Shown here: one piece after another, positions 3,524 through 56,096 of the stretch
How positions within the stretch are numbered: position 1 is the stretch's first letter
Layout of the letters: every line of letters starts with the position of its first letter
From: Acholeplasmataceae bacterium
GTDB taxonomy: Bacteria > Bacillota_I > Bacilli_A > Acholeplasmatales > Acholeplasmataceae
Direction of reading: 5' to 3'
Length of the DNA stretch: 64,000 bases
Assembly: GCA_050953825.1 (NCBI GenBank)
Contig: JBMNNF010000003.1
Span: forward strand, 70,767-134,766
Notes under the pieces: generated by a model
Told to the model about the DNA's origin: nothing
What the model saw: only the letters and a program-made list of their open reading frames with translations
Databases searched by the model: none
Program-made: the position numbers and the translations under genes

Positions 3524-3526
3524 CAT

Positions 3527-4960: not shown

Positions 4961-4962
4961 TT

Positions 4963-15040: not shown

Positions 15041-15057
15041 CAAAGGAGGAGTATTTA

Positions 15058-16095
15058 ATGGACCGAGAAGAAATTTTACAAAAAGCTAATCTTCCTGAAG
15101 AAGGAGCTTATTATACTCCAATTATTAAAGAGTTAACCCATCAAGAGATTAAACGAGCTCGAATTAAACATCGCGTTAAATATGTGTTAAAGATTTTAAA
15201 CTATTTATTACTATTAGTAGTCGGAGCTTCATTTGTCTATCCATTTATTTGGATGTTTTCGATGTCATTAAGAACGATTGCGGAAGCTAACCTATTCTCT
15301 CCCAATTTGATTGTGACCAATCCGCAATGGGGTAACTATTTAGAAGCTTGGAAACGAGCTAAGTTTAGTAAGTATTTAGGCAATTCCATTATGTATGCAG
15401 TATTAGTTTTAGGATTGCAATATTTCTTTATTATTCCGATTGCTTATGCGTTAGCTAGAATGGAATTTAAAGGTCGTAAGACATTATTTATTATTAAACA
15501 AATCGGTATGATGTTACCAATGGAGGCAACCTTAATCCCAGTTTATTTTCTATATGCGAGAATCGGTCTAGTTGATACTTGGACGGGATTAATTTTACCA
15601 AGTTTATTTTCAATGTTTGGTATTTACATGTTTATGAATCACTTTAAGACAGTACCAAATGAGATTGTCGAATCAGCTAAATTGGATAAAGCTAAAAATA
15701 GAACCATCATGATTCGAATTATGGTTCCATACATTTTACCAACTTTTATTACCCACTTTATTTTAACGTTTATTTCTAATTGGAACAGTTATTATTGGGT
15801 CTTAGTTATGACTTCAAGCGAAAGATTAAAAACCCTTCCAGTAGCCATTACCGGACTTTTAAGAGCGGAAGGAATTACCCAACCATGGCATTTAGCGATG
15901 GCTGGTAACATTTTACAACTAGCACCAATTCTATTAATGTATATTTTTGGTAACCAACAAGTTAAGCGAGCGATGATTGGTGGTAGAAAAATTAAATTTG
16001 CTGGATCAAGAAATAAAAAATCATTATTCAAACGAATTAAAGAAAAAATTGCTAAATCCAAAACTCAAATTACTTATGTTGAAAGGAAGGAATAA
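15058..16095 (+). CDS. ABC sugar permease (MalG type), duplicate copy
   Basis: Translation identical to 2486..3523. Confidence 0.9.
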   Translation: MDREEILQKANLPEEGAYYTPIIKELTHQEIKRARIKHRVKYVLKILNYLLLLVVGASFVYPFIWMFSMSLRTIAEANLFSPNLIVTNPQWGNYLEAWKRAKFSKYLGNSIMYAVLVLGLQYFFIIPIAYALARMEFKGRKTLFIIKQIGMMLPMEATLIPVYFLYARIGLVDTWTGLILPSLFSMFGIYMFMNHFKTVPNEIVESAKLDKAKNRTIMIRIMVPYILPTFITHFILTFISNWNSYYWVLVMTSSERLKTLPVAITGLLRAEGITQPWHLAMAGNILQLAPILLMYIFGNQQVKRAMIGGRKIKFAGSRNKKSLFKRIKEKIAKSKTQITYVERKE

Positions 16096-16098
16096 CAT

Positions 16099-17532: not shown

Positions 17533-17534
17533 TT

Positions 17535-35650: not shown

Positions 35651-35890
35651 ATGAAAACTCAAATTAAAAAAATAGGAAACAGCAAAGGAATTATTATTCC
35701 TGCAGCAATTATAAAAACATTAGGATTAGAAGAACAAGATAGTTTATTGTTAGAGGTTCAAGGAGATTCGATAATTATTAAAAAAGAGAAGAAAACACCA
35801 ATGACACTAATGCAACTATTTGAGGAATACGATGGTAATTATGACTATGATATCGTTTTTGATGATGCAGTAGGAGATGAAGTATGGTAA
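35651..35890 (+). CDS. mazE: MazE/AbrB-fold (SpoVT-AbrB) antitoxin
   Basis: KIGNSKGIIIPAAI swapped-hairpin motif, acidic C-terminus, overlaps the toxin gene by 7 nt. Confidence 0.8.
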   Translation: MKTQIKKIGNSKGIIIPAAIIKTLGLEEQDSLLLEVQGDSIIIKKEKKTPMTLMQLFEEYDGNYDYDIVFDDAVGDEVW

Positions 35891-36210
35891 AACAAGGAGA
35901 TATTATTTTAGTTGATTTCAGTCCAACTATTGGTTCCGAACAAAGAGGTAGAAGACCTGCGGTTGTAGTAAGCAATAATGATTTTCAAAGGGTAACGAAG
36001 AAGTTTGCTATTGTGGTGCCAATTACTTCAACGCGAAGAAATAAATTTCCTCTTCATGTTGGGCTTGATAATAGAACAAATACCCAAGGCGATATAATGT
36101 GTGAACAAATTAAAATGATTGATACCGAAGCTAGAAATGTCCAAGTAATCGAATCTATTCCCAACGATATATTGGAAAAGATTTTAAATTTAGTAACTTT
36201 ATTTTTTTAA
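35884..36210 (+). CDS. mazF: MazF/PemK-family endoribonuclease toxin
   Basis: GDIILVDFSPTIGSEQRGRRPAVVVS and the VVPITS block. Confidence 0.9.
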   Translation: MVKQGDIILVDFSPTIGSEQRGRRPAVVVSNNDFQRVTKKFAIVVPITSTRRNKFPLHVGLDNRTNTQGDIMCEQIKMIDTEARNVQVIESIPNDILEKILNLVTLFF

Positions 36211-36334: not shown

Positions 36335-37237
36335 ATGGATATAAAATATGATGAAAATATTATTCCACATCTTTTCGAAGGTGTATATGTAGTAGATCAA
36401 AATAGAAAAATCATTTTTTGGAATGACGGAAGCGAACGCATTACTGGTTATTCTAAAGAAGAAGTAACCAATAGTTATTGTTACCAGAATTTTTTACAAC
36501 ACGTAGACGAAAATGGGAACCAGTTATGTCTTTCTGAATGTCCACTTCATAAAACCTTGCAAGATGGTATTATTAGACAGGCTCATGTGTTTTTAAAACA
36601 TAAAGATGGGTATCGGATACCAGTTATGGTTAAAACCTTACCAATTTATGATCAAGATCACAATATCGTCGCGGCTATTGAAGTATTTACCGATGAGAGA
36701 TTCCAAAAACAAATTTATCACGAAAATATTGAATTAAAAGATAAACTTCGAATTGATCCATTAACCCAAGTAGCTAATCGGAATTACTTTGATTTTGAAA
36801 TGACTAAAAGGTTAGAAGCGGCTAAATTATTTTCTAATACCTTTGGCATTTTAATGATGGATATTGATCATTTTAAAAATGTAAACGACACTTACGGTCA
36901 CTTAGTTGGCGATGAAATTTTAAAAATTGTCGCCCACACATTAACATCTAATGTTAAGAAAACGGATTTAGTAAGTCGTTGGGGTGGCGAAGAGTTTATT
37001 GCGATTATCGATGTTTTAAATAAAGAGGATTTAGAAATAATAGCGGAACGATTAAGACTATTAGTTCAAGCCTCTAGTTATCAATTAGATGATGACAAAA
37101 TGGTTCATGTGACAATTTCTATTGGTGGAACATTAGTGACAAAAACTGATACGATTATGACGGCCATTAAAAGGGCAGATGACAATATGTATTATGCAAA
37201 ACAAAATGGTAGAAATCAATCAAAGATTTCTACTTAA
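36335..37237 (+). CDS. PAS-GGDEF diguanylate cyclase
   Basis: PAS-like N-terminus, then DIDHFKNVNDTYGH and the active site RWGGEEF. ATG 36335 is preferred over the TTG at 36299. Confidence 0.85.
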   Translation: MDIKYDENIIPHLFEGVYVVDQNRKIIFWNDGSERITGYSKEEVTNSYCYQNFLQHVDENGNQLCLSECPLHKTLQDGIIRQAHVFLKHKDGYRIPVMVKTLPIYDQDHNIVAAIEVFTDERFQKQIYHENIELKDKLRIDPLTQVANRNYFDFEMTKRLEAAKLFSNTFGILMMDIDHFKNVNDTYGHLVGDEILKIVAHTLTSNVKKTDLVSRWGGEEFIAIIDVLNKEDLEIIAERLRLLVQASSYQLDDDKMVHVTISIGGTLVTKTDTIMTAIKRADDNMYYAKQNGRNQSKIST

Positions 37238-37290
37238 AAAATGAATGTTTTAATCAAATTAAACTTGTAGTTTAAAATGATGATAAAGCC

Positions 37291-37319
37291 TTGCAAATGA
37301 TATTTTTGTCTGATATATT
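37291..37319 (+). promoter_or_regulatory. Promoter of the orphan RNA candidate
   Basis: TTGCAA 37291-37296, 17-nt spacer, TATATT 37314-37319. Confidence 0.55.
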
Positions 37320-37325
37320 ACTTAT

Positions 37326-37798
37326 GCAAGTTAAATATTGTTTGTGGCTGAATAAACCTTTGTCGAGGTTAAGGCACGCTGGTGGGAGAGCTCTTGAGGT
37401 TGGAACACCTTCATACTGGAATGTATCCGGGAAAAGACGGCGGTGAAAACAATTAACTATGGCTTATCGCAATCTCGAAACTGGCTTCTGGGCTTGCCGA
37501 GTAGTGACGCACCGGTTAAGCGATGTCAACCAGAAGTGGTCGTTGACGTATAGTGATATACTATAACAGTTCTGTCGAGAGGTCTGTTGCTGAAATCGAC
37601 CAGGGATAGCTCTTATGTGCTCAAAACCGGTCAGACACAGTGACGGTCCCGAGAGGGTAGCAATAGTACCTAAATGATCAATAGGTATGCTATGGCAGAA
37701 GAAAGGTGTAGTTAGTTAGAGTTGGAGAGGATGACACGCCCTCTTCCAAACACTATTTATATTTGCTCACAAAAGAAAGAGTTTCATACTCTTTTTTT
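37326..37798 (+). ncRNA. Unclassified large structured RNA candidate (about 470 nt)
   Basis: No ORF in the supplied track on either strand across 37238..37914. Markedly more G+C-rich than the flanks. Many nested and pseudoknot-type complementary segments. Own terminator aaagagt-ttcat-actcttttttt at 37776-37798. Confidence 0.6.
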
Positions 37799-37866
37799 AA
37801 AAAAAATACCAAAATATCCCACTTTTTCATGATTAATAATTACTTGTTTGATAATTATCTAAATCG

Positions 37867-37895
37867 TTGACTTTCGAGATTAAATTTGATAACAT
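37867..37895 (+). promoter_or_regulatory. Promoter of the riboswitch-antiporter operon
   Basis: TTGACT 37867-37872, 17-nt spacer, extended -10 TGaTAACAT 37887-37895. Confidence 0.55.
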
Positions 37896-38013
37896 ACTCG
37901 CGTAGATCTCCGAATCATTTCGAGTGGGGGACCCAGTTATTTGGGGTGAATCTCATTAGAGTAAGGCAACTTAATTGTCTGAACCCGTCAGCTAACCTCA
38001 TAGGAGTGATTAA
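37896..38013 (+). promoter_or_regulatory. c-di-AMP riboswitch (ydaO/yuaA motif)
   Basis: Contains the conserved blocks GGGGGACCCA, GGGGUGAAUC and GAACCCGUCAGCUAACCUC, in the order and spacing I recall for B. subtilis ydaO. Confidence 0.85.
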
Positions 38014-38014
38014 G

Positions 38015-38040
38015 CGTATAACATTGTTATGCGTTTTTTT
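38015..38040 (+). terminator. Riboswitch expression-platform terminator
   Basis: 8-bp stem cgtataac/gttatgcg, 3-nt loop, T7 run, located 25 nt before the start codon. Confidence 0.75.
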
Positions 38041-38065: not shown

Positions 38066-39448
38066 ATGGAGTTAAATTTATTGTTTAAAGTTGCGATAGT
38101 TTTAATTGTTGGCTTTATCGGAGGGCAAGTTGCTAGAAGATTAAAATTACCAAATGTTTCGGGGTATTTACTATTTGGATTATTATTGGGACCATCTTTA
38201 GGCTTAATTATTCCGGGATTTAGGGGATTAATCACGGCTGAAGATCAAAACACGTTACAATTCATTAGTGAAATTGCCCTAGCTTTTATCGCCTTTAGTA
38301 TTGGTAGTGAGTTTAATATTAAAAGCGTTAAAAAAATGGGGAAAGAAGTTAACGTTATCACATTAATGGAAGTAACTGGAGCAGTCATGTTAGTCTTCTT
38401 ATTTATGTTGGTGGTACCAAAGCCACAAACATTTAACAATACATACAATGTTATAGGGTATAATCCCTTTGCTAGGCCAAATGTTGCTTTCTCCATGATT
38501 CTTGCGAGTATGTCAGCTGCAACGGCACCAGCCGCAACATTAATGGTTGTTAGACAATATCGTGCATACGGACCGGTTACTAAGAAGATTTTACCAATTA
38601 CTGCAATGGATGATATCTACGGAATTGTTGTTTTTGGATTCTTTATTTCATTTGCTCAACTGTTAGTACCAGCAGGCGAACAATTACCATTATGGTTAAT
38701 GATTGCCAAACCATTTATTGAGGTATTCGGATCATTATTAATTGGAGCCATAATTGGATATCCATTATCAATTTTAGCTAGAAAGTTTGATCGAGAACGG
38801 GATGATATTCAAGTCTTGGCGATATCAGCGGTAGTACTATCACTTGGTTTTATTAGTGTTTTAAACCATGAAAAAGTATTAGGTCAATTTGGTATTAGTT
38901 TTTCAGCTCTATTATCTAATATTATTACTGGAGCGATGATTGCTAATCTAACTAGAAGACCAACTAGAACCTTTAATGCGGTTAATGATTTTACCGCTCC
39001 ATTCTTTGTTATGTTCTTTACTTTAGCAGGAGCCGGATTAGACTTGGCTATCATCAAGCAAGAATGGTTAATTGCAGTAATTAGTGTTGTCTATATTTTA
39101 GGTAGAGGTTTTGGTAAATATATTGGTACTTATTTAGGTGCGACAATGATGAAGAGCGAAGATAGTGTTAGAAAATATCTTGGTCTTGGACTCTTGCCAC
39201 AAGGTGGAGTCTCAATTGGACTTTTAGTTCTTGTTAAAAGAGCGTTCCCTGAAAATGATTTAGGAGAATTAAGTCCAATGTATAGTCTAATTTATACTAT
39301 AATTATGTTAAGTATTTTAGTTTATGAAACATCAGGCCCAATCTTTGCTAAGATTGCAATTTCTAAAGCCGGAGAAATTGGTGGTCTTGACAAACTTGAT
39401 CAGCTATCAAGTGTTGATGATTTAGTTTTAGAAGAAGAAGGAGTGTAA
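38066..39448 (+). CDS. Cation:proton antiporter (CPA2/Kef-type Na+/H+-exchanger family)
   Basis: About 12 TM segments. The N-terminal block GQVARRLKLPNVSGYLLFGLLLGPS is typical of the family. Lies downstream of the c-di-AMP riboswitch. Confidence 0.8.
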   Translation: MELNLLFKVAIVLIVGFIGGQVARRLKLPNVSGYLLFGLLLGPSLGLIIPGFRGLITAEDQNTLQFISEIALAFIAFSIGSEFNIKSVKKMGKEVNVITLMEVTGAVMLVFLFMLVVPKPQTFNNTYNVIGYNPFARPNVAFSMILASMSAATAPAATLMVVRQYRAYGPVTKKILPITAMDDIYGIVVFGFFISFAQLLVPAGEQLPLWLMIAKPFIEVFGSLLIGAIIGYPLSILARKFDRERDDIQVLAISAVVLSLGFISVLNHEKVLGQFGISFSALLSNIITGAMIANLTRRPTRTFNAVNDFTAPFFVMFFTLAGAGLDLAIIKQEWLIAVISVVYILGRGFGKYIGTYLGATMMKSEDSVRKYLGLGLLPQGGVSIGLLVLVKRAFPENDLGELSPMYSLIYTIIMLSILVYETSGPIFAKIAISKAGEIGGLDKLDQLSSVDDLVLEEEGV

Positions 39449-39450
39449 AA

Positions 39451-39807
39451 ATGAACGTATTATTTATTGTATTAAACGATTTAGCTTATTTAGATGAAAT
39501 TTTAGAAAAATTTGTGGATCTTAAAGTAAGAGGGGCTACTATTATTGAATCTCAAGGAATGGCATCAGCCATTCTCAATAGCGAAGGATTAAACTTCTTG
39601 ATGCAAGGATTATTTAAAGGTAGAACTGATGAAGAACAAAAATATTCAAAAACTATTTTTACAGTAATTCCTGATGAAGAAACTTTAAATAAAACAGTAG
39701 AAGCTGTTAGAAAGATTGTTGAAAGATCAAGAAAGAGGACAGTAGGATTTATGTTTACTGTTCCTGTTTCAGGAATCTATCCACTATCACCTAAAAGAAA
39801 AGACTAA
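39451..39807 (+). CDS. Small PII-like (beta-alpha-beta x2) protein, function unknown
   Basis: Alternating pattern VLFIVLN / LDEILEKFVDL / GATIIESQG / long loop / TIFTVIP / LNKTVEAVRKIV / GFMFTVPV. Start codon lies 2 nt after the antiporter stop codon (no overlap). Confidence 0.5.
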   Translation: MNVLFIVLNDLAYLDEILEKFVDLKVRGATIIESQGMASAILNSEGLNFLMQGLFKGRTDEEQKYSKTIFTVIPDEETLNKTVEAVRKIVERSRKRTVGFMFTVPVSGIYPLSPKRKD

Positions 39808-43529: not shown

Positions 43530-46500
43530 ATGATGGAAAAAAGTAAGTCGTTCCTTATCGGCAAATTGAGTAAAATATTCAGCATTGCTGTTCTTTTTTT
43601 TAGCGTTTTTTTACTCAATGGATGCGAAAATTTTAATGAAGAAGATCCCAAAAATCACGATGTTGTGATTAAGTATTTAGGCGAGGATCTAAATGGTAAC
43701 TATAGTGTTAATCTTGAAGAAGTAATAGTTAATAACAGGGAAGGTTATGAGATTTCGATTGAAGAAAAGACCTTCCCTAATTTTATTTTTAGAGAAGATA
43801 ACCCTAGAACATACATTATAACTGGTGAAGACAACCAAGAAGTAATCATTAAATATGACAAAGATGTGGGGTATACGATTAATTTTGATGGTAATGGTCA
43901 TACGAGTGGTGATACTGAAAGTCAAAGTGTGGAATACAATCAAGAGATAGCTTTGACCCCAAATGGGTTCAGTCGAACTGGTTACAGATTTATTGGCTGG
44001 AGTACCACCAGTGACGGAGTCGTTGAATATGCTGACCAAGTTAATGTTTTAAATTTGGCAACAGGTTCTATTACTTTATATGCGGTCTGGGAAGCGAACA
44101 CCTATACCATCATTTTTGATGGAAATGGAGCCACTAGTGGAATTACTGATAGTCAAACTGTAATTTATGACCAAACAGTAGCATTAAATGCTAATGGCTT
44201 TAATAAAACTGGTTATATGTTTATGGGGTGGGGTCTTTCTAGTGATGGAACAGTTCAATATAATGACGAAGCTACTGTTAATAATATCGTATCATCAGAA
44301 TCGATTACCTTGTATGCAATTTGGCAAGCGGCAACATGTATGATACAATTTGATGGAAATGGTCATACAGATGGTAATACCGAAAGTCAGATTTCAAATT
44401 ATAACGAAGAAACAAGACTAAATGCCAACGGATTTAGTAGAACTGGATATAAATTTATTGGTTGGAGTACAACAAGTACCGGAAGTGTTGAATATAACGA
44501 TCAAGAAGATGTTTTTGATTTAACAAAATCAAATTTGGTAACTCTGTATGCAGTGTGGGAAGCCAAAGCATACTCCATATTTTTTAGCGGAAATGGTCAT
44601 GACACTGGCATGATGGAACATCAAAATGTCTCATATGATCAAGAAGTTCCTCTTTCCGCCAACAAATTTGGTAAGATCGGCCATACATTTCAAGGGTGGA
44701 GCACTACCACTGATGGAATTGTTGAATATAATGATAAAGCTAATATTAAGAATCTAACAATATCACAATCTATAACCCTTTATGCAGTATGGAAAGCTAA
44801 TATTTATACAATTATCTTTGATGGAAACGGACATGATGGTGGAGATACTGGAAACCAAACAGTCCATTATAACCAAGTTGTAACATTAAATACCAATAGA
44901 TATACTAAGACTGGCTATACATTTATGGGATGGAGTCGTTCTAGTGATGGATATATTCAATATAATGATGAAGCTACTGTTAGTAATGTAACAGAATCGG
45001 ATTCAATCACTTTATATGCTAAATGGGTTGTAAATTCATATATAATTATTTTTGACGGAAATGGAGCTAATAGTGGTTATACAGAAAGTCAAGAAATAGA
45101 TTACAATGAACAAGCCAGATTAAATGAAAATGGATACGGTAGGACTGGTCATACATTTAAGGGATGGAGCACAACCAGTTCCGGAAGTGTTCAGTATACT
45201 GACAAAATAAGTGTTAAAAATTTAGTACCATCAGGAACAATTACTTTATATGCAATTTGGGAAGCTAAAACTTATACAATTATCTTTAACGGAAACGGAT
45301 GTGATGGTGGTTATACTGAAAATCAAACAATTAATTATGGCAAACAAGTAACACTAATTCCAAATGGATATACTAAGACTGGTTATACATTTGCAGGATG
45401 GAGTCGCTCTAGTGATGGAAATATTCAATATAATAACGAAGCTAGTGTTAAAAATGTTACAGAATCGGATTCAGTTACTTTATATGCTAAATGGGTTGCA
45501 AATTCATATGCGATTTTCTTTGATGGTAATGGAGCTAGTGTCGGCCATACAAAATATCAGATGATAAGATATGATGAACAAGTCGAATTAAACAAAAATG
45601 AATACGATAGGACCGGTTATACATTTAAGGGTTGGAGTACAACTATTAATGGAAACGTTGAATATAATGATAAAGCTAATATTAAGAATCTAGCACCATC
45701 AGGAACCATTACTTTATATGCAGTTTGGGAAGTTAACAGTTATACTATTAATTTCGATGGAAATGGTAGTACAAGTGGTAGTACTGCTAGTCAAACGATA
45801 AATTATGATAAGCAAGTGGCATTAAATGCCAATGAATTTATTAAAAATGGCTATACCTTTATTGGTTGGAGTACATTAAGTGATGGAGCAGTTCATTATA
45901 ATGACAAAGCTAGTGTTAAGAATCTAACAACTGAAGCTTCGATCACTTTATATGCGGTTTGGAAAGTTAACAATTACACCATTAATTTTGATGGAAATGG
46001 CAACGATGGTGGAATTACGCCAAGTCAAATTTTAGAATATGAACAAGAATTGCCGTTGAACGCTAATGAATTTATTAAAATTGGTTATACTTTTAAAGGT
46101 TGGAGTACAACCAGCACTGGAAATGTTGAATATGTTGATAAAGCGAATGTTAAGAAGTTAACTGTATCAACAATTACACTATATGCAATATGGCAAGTTA
46201 ATACATATACCATCACCTTTGATGGAAATGGCAATGATGATGGAACTACCGCAAGCCAAACTATCAATTACGATGAAATTGCAACCCTTAATGAAAATGG
46301 ATTTAGTAAGACTGGATATACCTTTAAAGGTTGGAGTAAAACTGAAATAGGTAATGTTGAATATGATGATAAATCCAGTGTTTTAAAACTATCAACTGGA
46401 AATCCAATTACTTTATATGCAATTTGGGAAGAAAATACTTACACCATCCACTTTGATGGGAATGGACATACTAGCGGCAATACCGAAAATCAAGTAATAT

Positions 46501-49500
46501 ATTATGAAGATTCCGTATTACTTAATCTAAATCAATATACTAAAATTGGATATACCTTTAAAGGTTGGAGCGAAACTGAGACTGGAAATGTTAAATATAA
46601 CGATTTAGCCAATGTTAACAAGTTAATTCCTTCAGGAACCATGACCTTGTTTGCAGTTTGGGAAGCCAACAAATATACGATTGACTTTAATGGTAATGGA
46701 TTCACAGGTGGAAGTACTCAAAGTCAAACCGTAAATTATGATGAAGAAGTAGCTTTGACTGCTAACGGTTATAATCGTGATAATCACAAATTTATTGGTT
46801 GGAGTAAAACCGAGACTGGAGATGTCCTTTATAATGACAAAGCCAGCATTAAAAATCTAGTAACATCAGGTTCAATTACTTTATATGCAGTTTGGGCCGT
46901 TGGGACTCATACTATTAATTTTAATGGAAACGGATATACAAGCGGAAGTACCGCTAGTCAAGTTGTGGAATACGGACAAATAGTAACACTTAATGAAAAC
47001 GGATTTAGTCGCGATAATCATGTATTTTTAGGTTGGAGCAAAACCGAAACTGGAGACGTCGAATATATTGATCAAGCGGAAGTTCAAAACTTAACAACCG
47101 GAAATTCAGTCACACTATATGCGGTGTGGGCAGTAAGCATTTATACAATTACCTTTAATGGAAACGGTCATGAGAGTGGTAGTACCATAAATCAAACCGT
47201 AAATTATAACGAAGAAGTATCACTCAATGCTAATGGTTATAGCAAGGATGGGTATCTATTTATTGGTTGGAGTACTACAAGTGATGGAAGCGTTCAATAT
47301 AGTGATCAAGCAAGTGTTAAGAATTTAACAACTATTGGCTCAATTACCTTATATGCAGTTTGGGCCGCTAACTCTTATGAAGTTAATTTTAATGGTAATG
47401 GTCATACTAGTGGCAGTATTGCTAATCAAACTGTAGATTATGACGAACAAGTAGCACTAAATGCCAACGGCTTTAGTAGAACTGGTTACACATTTGCTGG
47501 CTGGAGTACCATAAGTGATGGAAGCGTTCAATATAGTGATCAAGCAATTATTAAGAACTTAACAACCAAAGTTTCAATTACCTTATATGCAGTTTGGGAA
47601 GTTAATACTTATACCATTATTTTTGATGGTAATGAACATGATGGTGGAAATACTGAAAATCAAATAATAAATTACGATGAACAAGTAACATTGATACCAA
47701 ATGGATATACTAAGACCGGCTATACTTTTATGGGTTGGAGTCGCTCTAGTGATGGATATATTCAGTATAATGATGAAGCTATTGTTAAAAATGTAGCAGA
47801 ATCAGGATCAGTTACTTTATATGCAAAATGGGGGGTTAATATTTATACCATCATCTTTGATGGTAATGGCCATACTAGTGGTAGTACCGCTAGTCAGACC
47901 ACTAATTATGATGAAGGAACAACTTTAAATATTAACGGTTTTATTAGAACTGGTTATAGATTTATTGGTTGGAGTACAACAAGCACTGGAAATGCTGAAT
48001 ATAATGATCAAGAAACTGTTCTCCGTTTGACCACATCAAATGCTATTACTTTATATGCAGTCTGGGAAGCCCAAGGTTACACAATATATTTTAATGGAAA
48101 TGGTTCAGATGCTGGAAATATGCAGTATCAAAATGTTATATATGATCAAGAAGTTGCACTTAAGCCAAATGAATTTGGTAGAACCGGCTACAATTTTAAA
48201 GGCTGGAGTACCACAAGTAATGGAAGTGTTGAATACACTGATCAAAAGAAGATTAAAAACTTAACAACATTACAATCCATAACCCTTTATGCAGTTTGGG
48301 AAGCAAACACCTACACAGTAAACTTTGATGGTAATGGTCATACTAGTGGCAGTACCGCAAGTCAAACAATCAACTATGATGAACAGGTCGCACTAAATGC
48401 CAACGGCTATAGTAAGACTGGCTATACTTTCATTGGTTGGAGCACAACGATTTATGGAAACGTTGAATACATTGACAAAGCAAGTATTAAGAACTTAACA
48501 ACCAGTGGATCAATTACTTTATATGCGATATGGACAACTAAATCTTATACAGTAAACTTTAATGGTAATGGTTATACTAGTGGCAGTACTGCAAGTCAAA
48601 CAATCAACTATGACGAACAAGTCGCACTAAATGCCAACGGCTTTAGTAAAACTGGATACACATTTATCGGTTGGAGCATTACAAGTGATGGAAGTGTTCA
48701 ATATAATGACCAAGCGAGTGTTAAAAATCTAACAACCGAAACCTCAATTACTTTATATGCGGTATGGACAACTAAATCTTATACAGTAAACTTTGATGGT
48801 AATGGTCATACTGATGGAAGTACCGCTAGTCAAACAATTAACTATGATGAACAAGTAGCATTAAATGCCAACGGCTTTAATAAAACTGGATACACATTTA
48901 TCGGTTGGAGCATTACGAGTGATGGAAGTGTTCAATATAGTGATCAAGCTAGTGTTAAAAATCTAACAACCCAAACTTCAATTACTTTATATGCAGTTTG
49001 GGAAGCTAATACTTATACCATCATCTTTGATGGTAATGGTCATACTAGTGGCAGTACCGCTAGTCAAACAATTAACTATGACGAACAAGTAGCATTAAAT
49101 ACCAATGGCTTTATCAGAACTGGTTACACATTTGTTGGTTGGAATACAGCTAGCACTGGAACCGCTGAATATACTGATGGAGCTAGTGTTAAGAATTTAA
49201 CAACCGAAACCTCAATTACTTTATATGCGGTATGGACAACTAAATCTTATACAGTAAACTTTGATGGTAATGGTCATACTAGTGGCAGTACCGCAAGTCA
49301 AACAATCAACTACGATGAACTAGTATCATTAATTCCAAATGGATATACTAAGACTGGCTATACTTTTATGGGATGGAGTCGCTCTAGTGATGGAAGTGTT
49401 CAATATAGTGATCAAGCTAGTGTTAAAAATCTAACGACCGAAACCTCAATTACTTTATATGCAGTTTGGGAAGCTAACTCTTATACAGTAAACTTTGATG

Positions 49501-52500
49501 GTAATGGTCATACTAGCGGCAATACCGTAAGTCAAACAATTAACTATGATGAACAAGTCGCACTAAATGCCAACGGCTTTAATAAAACTGGATACACATT
49601 TATCGGTTGGAGCATTACAAGTGATGGAAGTGTTCAATATAGTGATCAAGCTAGTGTCAAGAACTTAACAACCCAAACTTCAATTACTTTATATGCAGTC
49701 TGGGAAGCTAACTCTTATACAGTAAACTTTGATGGTAATGGTCATACTAGTGGTAATACTTTAAGTCAAACGATAGATTATGACGAACAAGTCGCATTAA
49801 ATACTAACGGCTTTATCAGAACTGGTTACACATTTGTTGGTTGGAATACAGCTAGTACTGGAACCGCTGAATATACTGATGGAGCTAGTGTTAAGAATTT
49901 AACAACCGAAACCTCGATTACTTTATACGCAATCTGGGAAGGAAATACTTATACTATTAACTTTAATAGAAATGGAAGTGACGCTGGAAGTATGGCCAGT
50001 CAAACTGCTAAGTATGGTCAACAAGTATCACTTAATCCAAACGGATTTTCAAAGACTGGTTATACATTCATTGGCTGGAGTACAACAAGTACGGGAAATG
50101 TTAAATATACCGACAAGGCAAATACTAATAACTTAACTACTGAAAGTTCAATCACTTTATATGCTATCTGGAAAGCTAACACTTATATCATTACCTTTGA
50201 TGGTAATGGTCACACCGGTGGAAATACTACCAGTCAAACTGTAACTTATGATGAAGAAATAACCTTAACTGCTAACGGATTTTCAAAGACTGGTTATAAA
50301 TTCGTTGGTTGGAGTACAACAAGTACGGGAAATGTTAAATATGTCGATCAGGCAAGTGTTAGTAATATAACTATTGAAAGTTCAATTACCTTGTATGCAG
50401 TCTGGGAAAAAACTCATCAAAAAATTACATTCAATTTAAACGAAGGGACATTACCAAGTGGTTATAGTACAATAATTTATGTTTCAAATCAACTTTTCCC
50501 ATATGTGTTACCAACACCAACAAAAATTCAAAGTGGTGAAGCCTCATATGAATTTTTAGGTTGGTATGAAACTAACTCAACTGAAGGAACGAAAGTAGAT
50601 GTTTTATCAGAGCTTAAAGATTATACTTTATATGCACAGTGGAATACTGATGTGGTCTACTATAAAGGTGAATATCCGCAATCAAGGGTCACTAACTCAT
50701 CATTACTAACTGAATTAAATAAATTAACACCTCAAACTTCAAGTAAAATATTAACTACATCACAAGGTACAGCACATACAGAAGTATGGTATACCATTAA
50801 TTATGGTGGCTATAAGTTTGAAAAAGTTGGCGACAAATATTATAAATATGAACCAATCGCCTTTTATAAATTAGCCGATGGTACATATTATTCAAAACAT
50901 GTAATCGATTATTCGCCATTTGATGAAAAGGTTGATAACGAGACTGTAACTAATAATTATCATAATAGTTACGTGAGAAAGTATTTAAATGAAGTAATTA
51001 AAACTAAGGCAGGAATTAACTCAACATTAGGCTTATTGTCAAAAGCCCAATTATCTAATACCACTAATTTTGCTGATGATAATGCAAGAGCTGCTCAGAC
51101 TACAAGTTACGGTTTCGGAGTAGTAGAAGGTGGTAGAGGAAAAATAACATCATTTTCTGTCAACTATTTCTATTTTTATAATAAACACTATTGGACTAAT
51201 ACTCCTAGTACATATTCTAAATATGTCGTCAATCGTGTTAATGGAGATGGTATTTTCTTAGATGCCGATTGTAACCACGCTTTCGGTTTGCGCATCACCA
51301 TTCCAAAAACCTATACTATTGAATTTAGAGGAAATGGTAGCGATAGCGGTAGTACTGAAACCCAAATAGTCGAATATGGAATGCCAACACCACTGAATAT
51401 GAATGGATTTGCAAGAGAATGTTACGCATTTGTTGGTTGGAGTACTACTTATAACGGGGATGTTGAATATGAAGATGGAGCCATAATTACCGATCTAACA
51501 ACCGAAAATATTACTTACTTATATGCGAAATGGGAAAGAATCGCCGTTAAGATTACCTTTAATTTAAATGGCGGTACTTTACCTGAAGGCTATGATACCG
51601 TAATGATGATTTATAATACTGAATTTCCATATACCTTACCAATTCCTGAAAAAGCTCAAAATGGCGAAGAATCATATGAGTTTTTAGGTTGGTCATACTC
51701 TAGTAGTCCAACGGGCAATAAAATTTATGTCTTAGAAACTCCTTCAACCTCTACCTTATACGCACATTGGGGTAGTGTTTACTATAAAGGTGAGTATCCA
51801 CAAACTAAAGTTATGGATGAAACATTAATCATTGAATTAAATAAATTAACACCTCAAACATCAAGTAAAACATTAACGACATCACAAGGCAAGTCACATA
51901 CAGAAACTTGGTACACAGTTACATATAATGGTATTAAATATGAAAAAGTCGGTACCGATTATTATAAATATGAACCAATTAAGTTTTATAGGTTATCAGA
52001 TGGAACTTATTATTCTGGCTTCATAATTGATTACTCTCCATTTGATGAATATACAACTAGTGTTGTAACTAATATTTACAACAATAGTTATATTAAAAAA
52101 TATTTAAACGAAGTAATCAAAGCTAAAACAGGATTTACCTCATTAATCGGAATCTTATCAAATGAAGAGTTATCCAATACCACCAATTTCGCCAATGGTG
52201 CCGCAAGAAGAACTACAAGTACTGAATACGCAACGGCAATTTATCAAGGTGCTAGAGGCAAAATTACATTTGGTTCTTATTCTTCTAGTTATTTAGATAA
52301 TTATTGGACAAGTACTCCAAGTGCAGACAATGGCAATCTTGCGTATGTGGTTAATAAATACGGAACTCAATCCGCTTCTAATAATAGAACTAGTCGTGTT
52401 CTCGGCTTACGGATGACAATACCAGGAACTTACACCATCAATTTTGATGGAAATGGAAGTGATGGTGGTAATACCGCCAGTCAAATTGCACCATATGATC

Positions 52501-55500
52501 AAGAGGTACAATTAAATGCCAACGGCTTTACAAGAACTGACTATACATTTATTGGTTGGAGTACTACTAGCACTGGAGATTGTATCTATGATGATCAAGC
52601 ACTAGTTACCAATTTAACAACCCTTGAGACAGTAACTTTATATGCAAAATGGATTAGAAATCCAAAAACCATTACTTTCCATTTAAATGATGGTAGTTTA
52701 CCTGAAGGTTATGAGACAACAATGTTACTTTATGAAGCTAATCTTCCATATACTTTACCAATACCAACTAAAGCTCCAAATGGCGAAGCCCACTATGAAT
52801 TTATTGGTTGGTATCCATCAAATACAATTATATTTGACAATAAAATTGAGGTCTTAAATGAGTTTGAAGACTATACATTATACGCTAAATGGGATGAAGT
52901 CTACTATATTGGCGAATATCCACAAACTAAAGTAATTGATTCAGCCTTAATTATTGAATTAGATAAACTAACACCTCAAACATCAAGTAAAACATTAACG
53001 ACATCGCGAGGTAAGTCACATACAGAAACTTGGTACACAGTTACATACAGTGGTATTAAATATGAAAAAGTCGATACTGATTATTATAAATATGAACCAA
53101 TTGCATTTTGTAAAACAGCAGATGGAACTTATTATTCTAGACACATATTAGACTATTCACCATTTGATGAACTAGGTAATGATAGTACTATAACCAATAT
53201 CTACAACAATAGTTATGTTAGAAAGTACATAACAGAAGTTGTTAAACCTAAAACAGGTCTTGATTTTCTATTAGGTTTATTTTCAAAAGAACAGCTAAAT
53301 AATAGCGATGATTTCCCTTGGAATGCTCATCGAAAAGCTGTTAATACAGATTACTCAAATATGGCATGTCAAGGTGGAAGAGGAAAGATTCCGTCATCAT
53401 CATTTTTGGTCTCTTACAACATAAATTATCTAAATACATATTGGACAAACAGCCCTTCAACAGCTTTATACCGAACACTCAATGTTAAAGATAATGGTTC
53501 TGTAGTTCCAAATTCTCAAGGTGCTTCTACACATGAAGTGTTAGGGCTTCGCATAACAATTCCAACCGGTTATACTATAACTTTTAATGGTAACGGTTAT
53601 ACAAGTGGTAGTACGCCAAAACAGATCGTAAAATATAATGAATCAGAACAAGTTCAATTAAATGCTAATGGATTTTTAAAGACAGGCTATACTTTTAAAG
53701 GTTGGAGTACAACCGCTACTGGAGAAGTTGAATATAATGACGAAATGGTTATTGAAAGTCCTCTAGCAGATGAATTAATCACTTTATATGCCGTTTGGGA
53801 GGCAAACACTTATACCATTATCTTCAACGGTAATGGACATGACGGTGGTATCACACCAAATCAAAATATGACATACGACCAGGCATTGGCGTTACATCAA
53901 AGTAATTTTTATAAAGAAAATTACAAGTTTATTGGTTGGAGTACAACCGCCACTGGCAATGTTATTTATGAAAATAAGGAAATAGTTATTAATTTAACCA
54001 CTTCCGGTTCAATTACTTTATATGCGGTTTGGTTATTAGGTAAGCAAATCACTCTTAACTTAAACGGTGGCACCCTACCTAGTGGTTATAAGAGTGTGAT
54101 GTTTATAGCTAACTCAGACTTCCCATATACCCTACCAATTCCGACGAAAACTGATGGGGAGGGCGGAGTATATGAATTTTTCGGTTGGTATGATAACCAC
54201 TATATGCATTATGGAAATAAATTAGATGAGTTAACTGAAATTAAAGATTATACTTTATATGCCCATTGGACTGAGTATCCTGTTTATTACCAAAATGAAT
54301 ATCCTCAAACTAAAGTCACTGATCAAGCATTAATCACCGAATTAAATAAACTCACACCTGAAACATCAAGTAAGACGTTAACTACTTCACAAAATACATC
54401 TAACGTTGAAACTTGGAATACAGTTACATATAGCGGTAATAAATATGAAAAATTGGGTAGCGATTATTATAAATATGAACCAATTGCCTTCTATAAATTA
54501 CCAGATGGAACTTATTATTCAAGATATATCATCGATTATTCACCATTTGATGAATACGGAAGTCCAACTATCCAAACTAACAAATACGACGATAGTTATG
54601 TTAGAAAATATTTAAAAGAAGTCATGAGGACTAAATCGGGAATTGATCAAACATTAGGCTTATTGTCAACTGATGAATTATCAACTTATAATAAAATTAA
54701 CAAAGCCACTAGTACTGATTATGCAAGTGCAGTCTTATTAGGTGGTAGAGGTGAAATAACATCATTTGAAGTTTCTTACGATGATTCTTATTTAAATTAT
54801 TACTATACAAATACTTCGTATACATATGGCACTCAAAGTGCATATTGTATCAATGCTGATGGTAATAAAACTAACTATATTTGTTATCGAGTACTAGGTC
54901 TTCGCGTGTCGATTCCAAGAACCTATATCATAACCTTTGAGGGAAACGGTCATGATAGTGGAAGTACTCAAAGTCAAACAGTCTATTACCATGAACGAGT
55001 ACCACTAAATGCTAATGGATTTAGTAAATCTGGTCACACCTTTATGGGATGGAGTACAACTAGTACAGGAGATGTTGAATATATTGATGAAGAAAATATT
55101 AAAAACTTAACCAATGAGGTTGGTGGCGAAGTAACCTTATATGCCGTTTGGGAAGAACATCATACCGTTAACGTTATTTTAAATGGTGGAGCTTTACCTG
55201 GTGGCGGTAATGTTATCAACGTTCCAATTTCAGAGTTTCCATTTATTATGCCAAGACCAACTAAGACTACTGGAAGTTATCATCGAGAATTTTTAGGTTG
55301 GTATACTGAAAACTCTACTGAAGGGACAAGATTAGACGTATTAAGTACACTTCAAACCTATACTTTATACGCTTTATGGGGTGATGAACCACTTTATTAT
55401 ATCGGCGAGTATCCACAAACTAAAATTACTGATGCAGCGTTAATTGCTATACTTGATGAATTGACACCACAAACATCAACTAAGACTTTACCAACATCAC

Positions 55501-56096
55501 AACCTGATCTATCTAACACAGAAACTTGGTATACGGTTAGTTATAAAGGTTATAAGTTTGAAAAACTTGGATCTAATTATTTTAAATATGAACCAATCGC
55601 TTTCTACTATCGAATCGATACCGGTCTTCATTACACTAAGTACATAATCGACTATTCACCATTTGATGTCTATGTATTTCCTGCAAGTGGGTATATCCCA
55701 TCTAATAATTATAATACTAGCTATGTTAAAGGTTATCTAAACCAAGTCCTTAAAATCAAAGCCGGTGTTACTTCAACTGTAAGGTTGTTATTAGAAACAG
55801 ATTTAAATAACACTGCTAATTTTGCTGATGTTGAAGCGAAAAAAGCGACATCTACCGAATATGCGGAAGAAGTATTTTTAACACATATCCGACACGAAAA
55901 TTCAACGCTAGGCGTCAGTTATAAAACTTCTTCATATTTGAATACTTATTGGACGGGTACTCCTAGTAAGAAAACAGATCAATCCCATATTAATCGAGTG
56001 GTTTATGTTTTATATAATGGTAATTATGGCGAACACTACTACTTAATAGAACACGCTAACTATTTATTTGGATTGCGTTGTGTGTTTGAAGATTAA
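43530..56096 (+). CDS. Giant (4188 aa) surface lipoprotein made of Listeria-Bacteroides-type (Flg_new-like) repeats plus five larger C-terminal modules
   Basis: Uninterrupted 12.5-kb ORF. Signal peptide with lipobox LLNGC. The repeat signature F(D/N)GNG...GY.F.GW...TLYA.W recurs throughout. Confidence 0.9.
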   Translation: MMEKSKSFLIGKLSKIFSIAVLFFSVFLLNGCENFNEEDPKNHDVVIKYLGEDLNGNYSVNLEEVIVNNREGYEISIEEKTFPNFIFREDNPRTYIITGEDNQEVIIKYDKDVGYTINFDGNGHTSGDTESQSVEYNQEIALTPNGFSRTGYRFIGWSTTSDGVVEYADQVNVLNLATGSITLYAVWEANTYTIIFDGNGATSGITDSQTVIYDQTVALNANGFNKTGYMFMGWGLSSDGTVQYNDEATVNNIVSSESITLYAIWQAATCMIQFDGNGHTDGNTESQISNYNEETRLNANGFSRTGYKFIGWSTTSTGSVEYNDQEDVFDLTKSNLVTLYAVWEAKAYSIFFSGNGHDTGMMEHQNVSYDQEVPLSANKFGKIGHTFQGWSTTTDGIVEYNDKANIKNLTISQSITLYAVWKANIYTIIFDGNGHDGGDTGNQTVHYNQVVTLNTNRYTKTGYTFMGWSRSSDGYIQYNDEATVSNVTESDSITLYAKWVVNSYIIIFDGNGANSGYTESQEIDYNEQARLNENGYGRTGHTFKGWSTTSSGSVQYTDKISVKNLVPSGTITLYAIWEAKTYTIIFNGNGCDGGYTENQTINYGKQVTLIPNGYTKTGYTFAGWSRSSDGNIQYNNEASVKNVTESDSVTLYAKWVANSYAIFFDGNGASVGHTKYQMIRYDEQVELNKNEYDRTGYTFKGWSTTINGNVEYNDKANIKNLAPSGTITLYAVWEVNSYTINFDGNGSTSGSTASQTINYDKQVALNANEFIKNGYTFIGWSTLSDGAVHYNDKASVKNLTTEASITLYAVWKVNNYTINFDGNGNDGGITPSQILEYEQELPLNANEFIKIGYTFKGWSTTSTGNVEYVDKANVKKLTVSTITLYAIWQVNTYTITFDGNGNDDGTTASQTINYDEIATLNENGFSKTGYTFKGWSKTEIGNVEYDDKSSVLKLSTGNPITLYAIWEENTYTIHFDGNGHTSGNTENQVIYYEDSVLLNLNQYTKIGYTFKGWSETETGNVKYNDLANVNKLIPSGTMTLFAVWEANKYTIDFNGNGFTGGSTQSQTVNYDEEVALTANGYNRDNHKFIGWSKTETGDVLYNDKASIKNLVTSGSITLYAVWAVGTHTINFNGNGYTSGSTASQVVEYGQIVTLNENGFSRDNHVFLGWSKTETGDVEYIDQAEVQNLTTGNSVTLYAVWAVSIYTITFNGNGHESGSTINQTVNYNEEVSLNANGYSKDGYLFIGWSTTSDGSVQYSDQASVKNLTTIGSITLYAVWAANSYEVNFNGNGHTSGSIANQTVDYDEQVALNANGFSRTGYTFAGWSTISDGSVQYSDQAIIKNLTTKVSITLYAVWEVNTYTIIFDGNEHDGGNTENQIINYDEQVTLIPNGYTKTGYTFMGWSRSSDGYIQYNDEAIVKNVAESGSVTLYAKWGVNIYTIIFDGNGHTSGSTASQTTNYDEGTTLNINGFIRTGYRFIGWSTTSTGNAEYNDQETVLRLTTSNAITLYAVWEAQGYTIYFNGNGSDAGNMQYQNVIYDQEVALKPNEFGRTGYNFKGWSTTSNGSVEYTDQKKIKNLTTLQSITLYAVWEANTYTVNFDGNGHTSGSTASQTINYDEQVALNANGYSKTGYTFIGWSTTIYGNVEYIDKASIKNLTTSGSITLYAIWTTKSYTVNFNGNGYTSGSTASQTINYDEQVALNANGFSKTGYTFIGWSITSDGSVQYNDQASVKNLTTETSITLYAVWTTKSYTVNFDGNGHTDGSTASQTINYDEQVALNANGFNKTGYTFIGWSITSDGSVQYSDQASVKNLTTQTSITLYAVWEANTYTIIFDGNGHTSGSTASQTINYDEQVALNTNGFIRTGYTFVGWNTASTGTAEYTDGASVKNLTTETSITLYAVWTTKSYTVNFDGNGHTSGSTASQTINYDELVSLIPNGYTKTGYTFMGWSRSSDGSVQYSDQASVKNLTTETSITLYAVWEANSYTVNFDGNGHTSGNTVSQTINYDEQVALNANGFNKTGYTFIGWSITSDGSVQYSDQASVKNLTTQTSITLYAVWEANSYTVNFDGNGHTSGNTLSQTIDYDEQVALNTNGFIRTGYTFVGWNTASTGTAEYTDGASVKNLTTETSITLYAIWEGNTYTINFNRNGSDAGSMASQTAKYGQQVSLNPNGFSKTGYTFIGWSTTSTGNVKYTDKANTNNLTTESSITLYAIWKANTYIITFDGNGHTGGNTTSQTVTYDEEITLTANGFSKTGYKFVGWSTTSTGNVKYVDQASVSNITIESSITLYAVWEKTHQKITFNLNEGTLPSGYSTIIYVSNQLFPYVLPTPTKIQSGEASYEFLGWYETNSTEGTKVDVLSELKDYTLYAQWNTDVVYYKGEYPQSRVTNSSLLTELNKLTPQTSSKILTTSQGTAHTEVWYTINYGGYKFEKVGDKYYKYEPIAFYKLADGTYYSKHVIDYSPFDEKVDNETVTNNYHNSYVRKYLNEVIKTKAGINSTLGLLSKAQLSNTTNFADDNARAAQTTSYGFGVVEGGRGKITSFSVNYFYFYNKHYWTNTPSTYSKYVVNRVNGDGIFLDADCNHAFGLRITIPKTYTIEFRGNGSDSGSTETQIVEYGMPTPLNMNGFARECYAFVGWSTTYNGDVEYEDGAIITDLTTENITYLYAKWERIAVKITFNLNGGTLPEGYDTVMMIYNTEFPYTLPIPEKAQNGEESYEFLGWSYSSSPTGNKIYVLETPSTSTLYAHWGSVYYKGEYPQTKVMDETLIIELNKLTPQTSSKTLTTSQGKSHTETWYTVTYNGIKYEKVGTDYYKYEPIKFYRLSDGTYYSGFIIDYSPFDEYTTSVVTNIYNNSYIKKYLNEVIKAKTGFTSLIGILSNEELSNTTNFANGAARRTTSTEYATAIYQGARGKITFGSYSSSYLDNYWTSTPSADNGNLAYVVNKYGTQSASNNRTSRVLGLRMTIPGTYTINFDGNGSDGGNTASQIAPYDQEVQLNANGFTRTDYTFIGWSTTSTGDCIYDDQALVTNLTTLETVTLYAKWIRNPKTITFHLNDGSLPEGYETTMLLYEANLPYTLPIPTKAPNGEAHYEFIGWYPSNTIIFDNKIEVLNEFEDYTLYAKWDEVYYIGEYPQTKVIDSALIIELDKLTPQTSSKTLTTSRGKSHTETWYTVTYSGIKYEKVDTDYYKYEPIAFCKTADGTYYSRHILDYSPFDELGNDSTITNIYNNSYVRKYITEVVKPKTGLDFLLGLFSKEQLNNSDDFPWNAHRKAVNTDYSNMACQGGRGKIPSSSFLVSYNINYLNTYWTNSPSTALYRTLNVKDNGSVVPNSQGASTHEVLGLRITIPTGYTITFNGNGYTSGSTPKQIVKYNESEQVQLNANGFLKTGYTFKGWSTTATGEVEYNDEMVIESPLADELITLYAVWEANTYTIIFNGNGHDGGITPNQNMTYDQALALHQSNFYKENYKFIGWSTTATGNVIYENKEIVINLTTSGSITLYAVWLLGKQITLNLNGGTLPSGYKSVMFIANSDFPYTLPIPTKTDGEGGVYEFFGWYDNHYMHYGNKLDELTEIKDYTLYAHWTEYPVYYQNEYPQTKVTDQALITELNKLTPETSSKTLTTSQNTSNVETWNTVTYSGNKYEKLGSDYYKYEPIAFYKLPDGTYYSRYIIDYSPFDEYGSPTIQTNKYDDSYVRKYLKEVMRTKSGIDQTLGLLSTDELSTYNKINKATSTDYASAVLLGGRGEITSFEVSYDDSYLNYYYTNTSYTYGTQSAYCINADGNKTNYICYRVLGLRVSIPRTYIITFEGNGHDSGSTQSQTVYYHERVPLNANGFSKSGHTFMGWSTTSTGDVEYIDEENIKNLTNEVGGEVTLYAVWEEHHTVNVILNGGALPGGGNVINVPISEFPFIMPRPTKTTGSYHREFLGWYTENSTEGTRLDVLSTLQTYTLYALWGDEPLYYIGEYPQTKITDAALIAILDELTPQTSTKTLPTSQPDLSNTETWYTVSYKGYKFEKLGSNYFKYEPIAFYYRIDTGLHYTKYIIDYSPFDVYVFPASGYIPSNNYNTSYVKGYLNQVLKIKAGVTSTVRLLLETDLNNTANFADVEAKKATSTEYAEEVFLTHIRHENSTLGVSYKTSSYLNTYWTGTPSKKTDQSHINRVVYVLYNGNYGEHYYLIEHANYLFGLRCVFED
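43866..50410 (+). repeat. 28 consecutive in-frame coding repeats of about 75-78 aa (about 234 nt)
   Basis: I counted 28 units ending in (I/V/M)TL(Y/F)A.W before the first large module. Confidence 0.85.
50410..56093 (+). repeat. Five copies of a composite unit: degenerate repeat, ~270-aa module, then 1-2 canonical repeats (none after the final module)
   Basis: Recurring blocks: ITFNLNGGTLPEGY, YEF(L/I)GWY, (E/N)YPQ(T/S)(K/R)(V/I), LNKLTPQTSSKTLTTSQG, YKYEPI, IDYSPFDE, YWT(N/S/G)(T/S)PS, GLR. Confidence 0.8.

Follow-up and report, generated by a model that had tools for sequence, protein, structure and literature searches.

Introduction

Bacterial noncoding RNAs (ncRNAs) of more than ~400 nt with elaborate conserved folds are rare, and to our knowledge nearly all of the large classes that have been studied are either ribozymes (RNase P and the group I and group II introns) or have proved to be surprises, such as the OLE dimer and the RNA-only cages of ROOL and GOLLD. 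OLE RNA is ~610 nt and raiA RNA ~200 nt in length. The monomers of OLE are joined by a symmetric kissing loop with a palindrome that can be GGCC, GAUC or AGCU, and ROOL and GOLLD form homo-oligomeric cages through kissing loops and A-minor contacts (PMC12286853). The raiA RNA is reported as an abundant structured ncRNA of the Bacillota, of unknown function, in more than 2700 species (PMC12968392). Here we examine a 64-kb stretch of DNA from an Acholeplasmataceae bacterium (contig JBMNNF010000003.1; hereafter the window), in which a first-pass annotation had placed a candidate orphan RNA, structured and bounded by a promoter and a terminator of its own, at 37291–37798. Our analysis supports this proposal, and neither of two outcomes that were named as counting against it, a cmscan match to a known family or a lack of conservation or covariation, was obtained. 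The whole of the evidence is best explained by what is probably an independent gene for a structured ncRNA of ~470 nt, representing a new family in a small uncultured clade of Acholeplasmataceae.

The element shares with OLE a length above 400 nt, an intergenic location, a high degree of structure with many conserved helices, anaerobic Bacillota-related hosts and a biochemical function that is unknown. It differs from OLE in its size (~440–470 nt), in having no oapA-type gene nearby, in its occurrence in one small clade and in leaving the Rfam OLE model unmatched. Like ROOL and GOLLD it is a large ornate ncRNA whose function is not known, it has GNRA loops and junctions of several stems, and it contains conserved loops, which in ROOL and GOLLD make intermolecular contacts (PMC12286853). 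It is smaller than these two, however, its neighbours are neither tRNAs nor prophage genes, and the searched collections of phage, plasmid and viral-contig sequences do not contain it. The resemblance to raiA lies in a transcription unit of its own, predicted here, beside a conserved neighbour gene, as is reported for raiA (PMC12968392), although the neighbour is a different one, the distribution is narrow and the raiA model is unmatched. In size, in the pairing of its 5' and 3' ends by P1, in its nested long-range helices and in its GNRA loops the element resembles type B bacterial RNase P RNA; it nevertheless gives no match to the Rfam RNase P models at E<=10 and is missing from the corresponding loci in relatives, and a distribution as narrow as that seen would be incompatible with an essential housekeeping RNA. 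The c-di-AMP (ydaO) riboswitch, which is the immediate downstream neighbour in the same orientation, is a separate element to which the RNA has no similarity.

Conservation and distribution of the element

The RNA element is under purifying selection as a nucleotide sequence. All coordinates below are window positions on the + strand, and species 2 and species 3 denote two related variants with which the window was compared. In the neighbouring GGDEF gene 28% of 4-fold sites differ between the window and species 2, against 3.8% of positions in 37326–37484, 10% in 37485–37620 and 14% in 37621–37766, so that the RNA evolves 2–7 times more slowly than 4-fold (neutral) sites. The terminator is 50% identical between the two, and the DNA beyond it is unalignable. 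The edges of conservation are, exactly, a promoter-proximal palindrome and the terminator; as the palindrome is invariant, the RNA sites are slow and the alignment is lost after the terminator, conservation coincides with the predicted transcription unit. The homologues on which the first-pass annotation had made its proposal depend thus exist, and they are constrained to this 2–7-fold extent.

These homologues comprise 5 distinct sequences from 3–4 close uncultured species of Acholeplasmataceae, with 87–90% identity. Among the GGDEF clusters only the nearest (P0121, 93%) pointed to a homologue, which is 89% identical. Its type was seen again when the species genomes of GTDB were scanned with a pattern, in the metagenome-assembled genome 'Acholeplasmataceae bacterium AS06rmzACSIP_177' (L059), and JGI metagenomes contributed it twice more, on contigs L064 and L075, together with a variant at the level of a third species (L079, 87%). 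The pattern used for the genome collection, GGGAGAGCTC..GGGAAAAGAC, gave 26 matches, 25 of them by chance and a single true one (L059); as the first block is different in species 3, this pattern was too stringent. That used for the metagenomes, GGGAAAAGA..GTGAAAACAAT, gave 21 matches, three of them real. Both kinds of collection scan demand exact matches of ~20 bases. A seeming partial homologue (L067) was rejected as it looks like coding DNA, and the three matches from pattern scans of viral contigs were all chance, the one inspected (L033) being coding DNA.

Searches with nhmmer, blastn and a covariance model (CM) found no copy of the RNA at the loci of antiporter homologues (71–75% identity; L003–L012) or of GGDEF homologues (73–84% identity; L013–L020 and L060–L062). 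Covariance model R1, built on 37345–37450, returned the known copies and nothing else from 471 kb of DNA at related and other loci, the phage and plasmid collections gave no match with blastn in distant mode, and no repeat of the element was found elsewhere in the 64-kb window. The distribution looks narrow, the copies seen so far being from one small clade.

The interval that holds the RNA gene (37238–37914) is flanked by a PAS-GGDEF diguanylate cyclase gene (36299/36335–37237) and by the c-di-AMP riboswitch (37898–38021), the neighbours that had been named at the outset. It had been described as free of open reading frames (ORFs) and indeed contains only chance-sized ones of 30–51 aa, with none of at least 60 aa; no coding remnants were found in any frame of the element. 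In agreement with the description of the element as G+C-rich, 37326–37766 exceeds every other 441-nt window of the 64 kb in G+C content (mean 32.8%, sd 3.6), although the measured value is 45.6% rather than the ~50% then given. The two 12-mers pointed out earlier are present, GGGAGAGCTCTT at 37384 and GGGATAGCTCTT at 37603, and species 3 retains just their (A/U)AGCUCUU portion. DNA identical to that of the window also occurs in the metagenome assembly GCA_046128195.1, and the protein neighbours are labelled Acholeplasmataceae in the source records.

Consensus fold

An RNAalifold consensus derived from the 5 distinct sequences (alignment A4) contains 152 pairs in 22 helices, and these helices are maintained through compensatory and wobble changes, so that the covariation sought as a check on the proposed RNA is present. 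Standard pairs occur in 98.8% of cells, compared with 39–46% when the partners are slid. Five pairs carry double-sided changes (37486/37535, 37493/37520, 37648/37657, 37726/37744 and 37729/37741), and the covariation score of 0.111, against 0.095 +/- 0.005, was reached by 0 of 500 shuffles. One-sided changes keep the pairing in 20 of 25 cases, whereas 1000 null trials average 15.5 +/- 1.5 and reach 20 at most, and helix P1 of species 3 has matched 2-nt deletions on both strands (A4 columns 12–13 and 434–435). The z-scores of the minimum free energy (MFE) on the + strand are -2.6 for the window, -2.9 for species 2 and -3.9 for species 3, compared with -1.65 for the - strand of the window, and the 19 G-U pairs fix the + strand, as the same fold on the - strand loses 17 pairs. 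No additional conserved covarying long-range pairings were found outside the consensus fold.

The folded RNA body (37325–37767, ~443 nt) is closed by P1, which pairs 37325–37344 with 37747–37767, and has an outer five-way junction of P1, P2, the P3 domain, P4 and P13. P2 is a hairpin (37347–37375) with one wobble-compatible change (37366 A/G). The P3 three-way-junction domain (37377–37442), the slowest-evolving part, has a closing helix (37377–81/37438–42), hairpins at 37396–37411 (loop UGGAAC) and 37416–37430, and a junction strand with the palindrome AGAGCUCU (37387–37394). Flanking its 3' strand are the purine-rich junction strands GGGAAAAGA and GUGAAAAC (37429–37450), which are invariant in 5/5 variants and furnished the pattern that retrieved species 3 from the metagenomes. 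P4 (37451–65/37703–17) and P5 (37467–70/37695–99) are long-range helices of 15 and 4 pairs that enclose the central and 3' domains; their five one-sided changes all retain pairing, and one cell is non-canonical. The inner junction enclosed by P4/P5 (37451–70/37695–717) comprises P6–P8, P9–P10, P11 and P12. The consensus as a whole holds two GNRA-type loops and several invariant single-stranded purine-rich strands.

The central domain (37472–37581) is formed by P6 (37472–83/37567–81), P7 (37484–91/37530–37), with a compensatory U-A to C-G change at 37486/37535, and P8 (37492–99/37513–21), with a compensatory C-G to U-A change at 37493/37520; wobble changes also support the helices of this domain. 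The 13-nt loop of P8, AGUAGUGACGCAC (37500–12), is invariant, and the domain further contains the internal loop GAUGUCAA (37522–29) and a hairpin at 37549–54/37560–65. A pseudoknot between GUCAA and UUGAC (37525–29/37543–47), the bases of which are invariant, is possible. The helices 37485–91/37530–36, 37492–99/37513–21 and 37549–54/37560–65 of the first-pass annotation therefore recur in the consensus, most of them with compensatory or wobble changes, and its hairpin at 37722–37749 does so as 37724–30/37740–46. The pseudoknot-like arrangement that it drew between 37565–69/37584–88 and 37574–78/37596–600 finds no support, the bases being occupied by P6 and P9. A seeming C-G to A-U switch at 37572/37581 turns into C.U in two other variants.

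In the 3' part of the inner junction, P9 (37584–92/37638–46) and P10 (37598–603/37627–32) have seven one-sided changes with pairing retained. P10 has a 23-nt loop with a conserved 5' half, AUAGCUCUUA, and a hypervariable 3' half; AGCUCU in the conserved half (37608–13) is complementary to AGAGCU in the P3 junction strand (37387–92), and a long-range contact may join the two. The P11 hairpin, CCC-GAGA-GGG (37648–37657), has a GNRA tetraloop and is UCC-GAAA-GGA in species 3, so that C-G gives way to U-A at the covarying closing pair and a GNRA loop is retained. The P12 hairpin (37658–37692) has a 9-nt loop, AAUGAUCAA (37673–81), with the palindrome UGAUCA (37675–80). The P13 hairpin, GGAGAGG-AUGACACGC-CCUCUUC (37724–37746), has compensatory pairs at 37726/37744 (A-U to G-C) and 37729/37741 (G-C to A-U). 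No convincing 11-nt GNRA-receptor or k-turn motif was seen in the RNA by eye.

Promoter, terminator and the downstream operon

A promoter scan finds a sigma-70-type promoter at 37291–37319 with the -35 hexamer TTGCAA, a 17-nt spacer and the -10 hexamer TATATT, exactly as first annotated, and adds to it a TG extension of the -10 element. From this TG-extended promoter transcription is predicted to start at ~37325–37326. Species 2 and 3 retain the TTG of the -35 hexamer, the TG extension and a TAnnnT -10 element (TGATAAGAT). Approximately 18 nt upstream of the -35 hexamer is a candidate operator, the 13-bp palindrome AAACTTGTAGTTT (37261–37273), which has no change across the three species while the promoter spacer has diverged. 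It could bind a regulator of the RNA gene; a search for a regulon within the window found copies of AAACTTGTAGTTT elsewhere at a level not above chance.

The predicted 3' end of the RNA is an intrinsic-terminator-like hairpin at 37776–37798, AAAGAGUU/(A)ACUCUUU with a U run (AAAGAGUUUCAUACUCUUUUUUU as a whole), which is included in the MFE fold. Its sequence is only 50% identical to that of species 2, yet the hairpin and U-tract are found in all variants, so the terminator placed there at the outset is corroborated by sequence, by the MFE fold and by its preservation in every homologue. The terminator scan omitted it, as it has fewer than three G-C pairs.

Downstream there is a second TG-extended promoter, TTGACT-17-TAACAT (37867–95, promoter scan), separate from the RNA gene and followed by the c-di-AMP riboswitch (37898–38021; Rfam 89 bits against a gathering score of 38), the terminator of the riboswitch (38012–38036, terminator scan), a gene for a CPA2 cation:proton antiporter (38066–39448, Pfam/NCBIfam) and a P-II-like gene of 118 aa (39451–39807; Pfam P-II 26 bits against a cut-off of 25, and no NCBIfam match). 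All of these are on the + strand. The P-II-like gene invariably follows the CPA2 antiporter under a c-di-AMP riboswitch, and its product could be a c-di-AMP receptor of the PstA/DarA type.

The gene order is tuf, MazEF, GGDEF, RNA and riboswitch–antiporter–P-II-like in the window, tuf, GGDEF, RNA and riboswitch–antiporter–P-II-like in L064, and MazEF, RNA and riboswitch–antiporter–P-II-like in L079, and the downstream operon is therefore the sole constant neighbour. A link of the RNA to MazEF or to GGDEF was dropped, as each is at the RNA locus in only 2/3 species. The MazE/MazF-type toxin-antitoxin pair itself lies at 35651–36210 of the window, between tuf and GGDEF, and is directly upstream of the RNA in L079 and absent in L064, so that the order of genes between the operons is evidently in flux even among closely related species. 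Where relatives have no RNA gene, little space lies ahead of the riboswitch or, in L003, a tRNA occupies the slot. This tRNA gene (L003:9699–9771, and also in L004) is directly upstream of the riboswitch of the orthologous antiporter operon.

The arrangement raises the question of whether the antiporter operon is served in cis by the element as a leader or sensor. In that case a regulatory RNA of unusual size would stand in tandem with the riboswitch, and its weak terminator would control read-through into the transcript of riboswitch and CPA2 antiporter. Wherever the RNA occurs it lies 60–100 nt upstream of the riboswitch and points the same way, with the riboswitch operon always following, while the upstream neighbour changes (GGDEF in two species, MazF in one); in addition the terminator, with only 2 G-C pairs, is uncalled by the scan, and the 3' strand of P1 ends 9 nt ahead of the terminator stem. 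Nevertheless, between the RNA terminator and the riboswitch there is the conserved TTGACT-17-TG-extended promoter, and as a relative without the RNA (L003) has the same riboswitch with the same TTGACT promoter, the operon can dispense with the upstream unit. No alternative pairing overlapping the terminator, and no competition between terminator and antiterminator, was found, and at ~440 nt the RNA is far above any known leader aptamer. The element shows neither the single upstream promoter nor the overlapping expression platform of a cis-leader or riboswitch. Duplexes between the RNA and the riboswitch leader (duplexfold) have energies no better than those of shuffled sequences, the method being uninformative at such length. 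Because the riboswitch has its own conserved promoter and no competing pairings were found, an independent gene is favoured, and we regard a leader as improbable, although it is the alternative that survives best.

Coding capacity

It is very unlikely that the conservation is explained in part by a small-protein gene or a dual-function RNA, in which a 36-codon ORF (GTG at 37443 to TAG at 37553) or another short ORF is translated. This ORF is open and of equal length in 5/5 variants, and 6–7 of the ~9 nucleotide changes between the window and species 2 are synonymous by a hand-derived count, both of which speak for a protein and against an RNA that acts only as such. However, there is no Shine-Dalgarno-like sequence before the GTG, the changes between the window and species 3 are mostly non-synonymous (3 replaced codons and 1 silent), and the substitutions in the ORF double as compensatory partners in P7/P8. 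No 36-aa homologue was found among 1.84 billion protein representatives, where the only matches were two weak ones to long repeat-like proteins, a Pfam search with the 36-aa ORF gave no match, and no gene is called there in any public contig. ORFs of such sizes are, by our estimate, expected by chance at 46% G+C. A 40-aa ORF in the most conserved part (ATG at 37324) is frameshifted in species 3 (L079), and the conservation spans 440 nt, which is beyond any ORF. In the 40-aa ORF 2/40 third positions differ from species 2, against 21% in GGDEF, which argues for constraint on the nucleotide sequence itself. None of the short ORFs in the RNA gene seems credibly coding, although the pattern of substitutions in the 36-codon ORF is ambiguous.

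Within the 36-codon ORF (37443–37553), third codon positions in P8 pair with third codon positions, so that compensatory changes there are silent on both strands; this is probably a coincidence, though a dual function is conceivable.

Comparison with known RNA families

To the 4227 models of Rfam 15, among them those of RNase P, tmRNA, 6S, SRP, OLE, ROOL, GOLLD, raiA, HEARO, group I/II introns and riboswitches, the whole window was compared with cmscan at gathering scores, and 37150–37950 at E<=10 with permissive filters. The sole match in the window is the c-di-AMP riboswitch at 37898–38021, and what the permissive scan gives within the element is at chance level, with manA in first place at 18 bits, far below its gathering score of 55. 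At the homologous loci L021, L075 and L079 the element likewise has no Rfam match, and the class that could not be recognised at the outset is therefore not one of the Rfam 15 families, whether in the window or at these three loci. ARAGORN finds no tRNA or tmRNA, no RNase P model matches at E<=10 and the P4/conserved-region signature of RNase P was not found, and the Rfam models of OLE, ROOL, GOLLD and raiA are unmatched. The element is a family undescribed in Rfam 15. It belongs to the loose group of large structured bacterial ncRNAs of unknown function, with the features by which such genes are informally recognised: it exceeds 300–400 nt, it has its own promoter and terminator and no conserved ORF, and it shows purifying selection at the nucleotide level and helices held by covariation in 5 sequences.

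The P1-closed multi-domain layout, the size and the GNRA loops are generic to such RNAs and could be those of an extremely divergent member of a known family (RNase P, 6S, OLE, ROOL, GOLLD, raiA or an intron remnant, for example) that lies beyond current models, and the strings UAUGGCUUAUCG and ACAGUGACGG are reminiscent of conserved regions of RNase P RNA. Against this, the strings are misordered and misplaced, 4227 models searched at E<=10 with permissive filters gave no match to four versions of the sequence, and a housekeeping RNA would not skip the syntenic loci of relatives or be limited to one clade, so that we find such a divergent member scarcely credible. That the element is non-functional DNA (a decaying gene or the remnant of a mobile element or horizontal acquisition that looks structured through its G+C richness) is as hard to credit: its distribution is narrow and the slot that it occupies, from tuf to the antiporter operon, is a variable one, filled in relatives by other genes, by nothing or by a tRNA, but it evolves 2–7 times more slowly than 4-fold sites with conservation ending exactly at the palindrome and the terminator, its substitutions favour preserved base pairs, and it has no phage or plasmid similarity, window repeats or coding remnants in any frame.

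Other features of the window and of related contigs

Positions 1–6038 and 12573–18610 of the window are an exact (100%) direct duplication of 6,038 bp, 12.5 kb apart, which takes in the whole of three ORFs (761, 345 and 477 aa) and the beginning of one more, and which is either a very recent event or an assembly artefact. A giant ORF of 4188 aa (43530–56096) has internal repeats of ~234 nt, and one 15-mer recurs in it at 48364, 48598, 48832, 49066 and 49534. On a related Acholeplasmataceae contig an ordinary FMN riboswitch (L006:15340–15463, 103 bits) lies upstream of an ECF-transporter gene.

Discussion

We propose that 37291–37798 (+) is an independent ncRNA gene of ~470 nt, which would be transcribed from ~37325 and would stop at the hairpin and U-tract of 37776–37798, and that a regulator could bind the invariant palindrome just upstream. 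The RNA would fold compactly, closed by P1, and would serve as a scaffold that acts in trans, not as a leader; if the element is an RNA gene, we consider such a scaffold somewhat the likelier mode of action.

A further and more tentative suggestion is that the UGAUCA loop of P12, and possibly the AGAGCUCU strand of P3, drive symmetric self-pairing that would lead to a dimer or higher assembly, by analogy with OLE, ROOL and GOLLD. The six UGAUCA bases are invariant, and the other three bases of the loop (37673, 37674 and 37681) vary between species, a split of 3 changes with a post hoc chance of 1/84; AGAGCUCU is self-complementary and is also complementary to the AGCUCU that lies in the conserved 5' half of the loop of P10. 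An invariant hairpin loop with the palindrome UGAUCA, together with the AGAGCUCU strand, would be comparable to the palindromic kissing loop of OLE if the present RNA does dimerise. As to function, our best guess, and a doubtful one, is a role in cation or osmotic homeostasis alongside the operon of c-di-AMP riboswitch, CPA2 antiporter and P-II-like gene, a guess that is made because this operon is the only constant neighbour.

Several observations weigh against these proposals to different extents. The transcript is a prediction from sequence, and the terminator is weak (2 G-C pairs), which makes read-through into the riboswitch operon possible. There are just 5 distinct sequences, from 3–4 close species at 87–90% identity, and the covariation, though real, is thin, 37 of the 500 shuffles reaching 5 double-changed pairs; many helices are invariant, and the fold was partly derived from the sequences on which it was then tested. 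The absence of the RNA from relatives is one at their syntenic loci only. Nothing links a partner or a phenotype to the RNA, and palindromes of six bases arise often by chance (~7 expected per 440 nt), the argument from the P12 loop being post hoc.

Notwithstanding these points, an independent structured RNA gene remains our preferred explanation, and the element may conceivably, though we would not expect it, be the first of a new class of ornate bacterial RNAs, 440–470 nt in length and specific to a clade of wall-less Acholeplasmataceae, which would self-assemble through a symmetric palindromic kissing loop, or act by catalysis or ligand binding, and would work with the antiporter/P-II-like module in ion homeostasis. 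Its importance is limited mainly by the narrow and shallow distribution, which may partly reflect the search tools. The host is a small-genome relative of the Mollicutes in which the RNA lies beside ion transport genes under second-messenger control, and the RNA is short enough for in-vitro transcription, chemical probing and cryo-electron microscopy (cryo-EM). If this reading is true, a class with no relation detected to the large RNAs studied so far would offer a fresh test case for the function of large RNAs.

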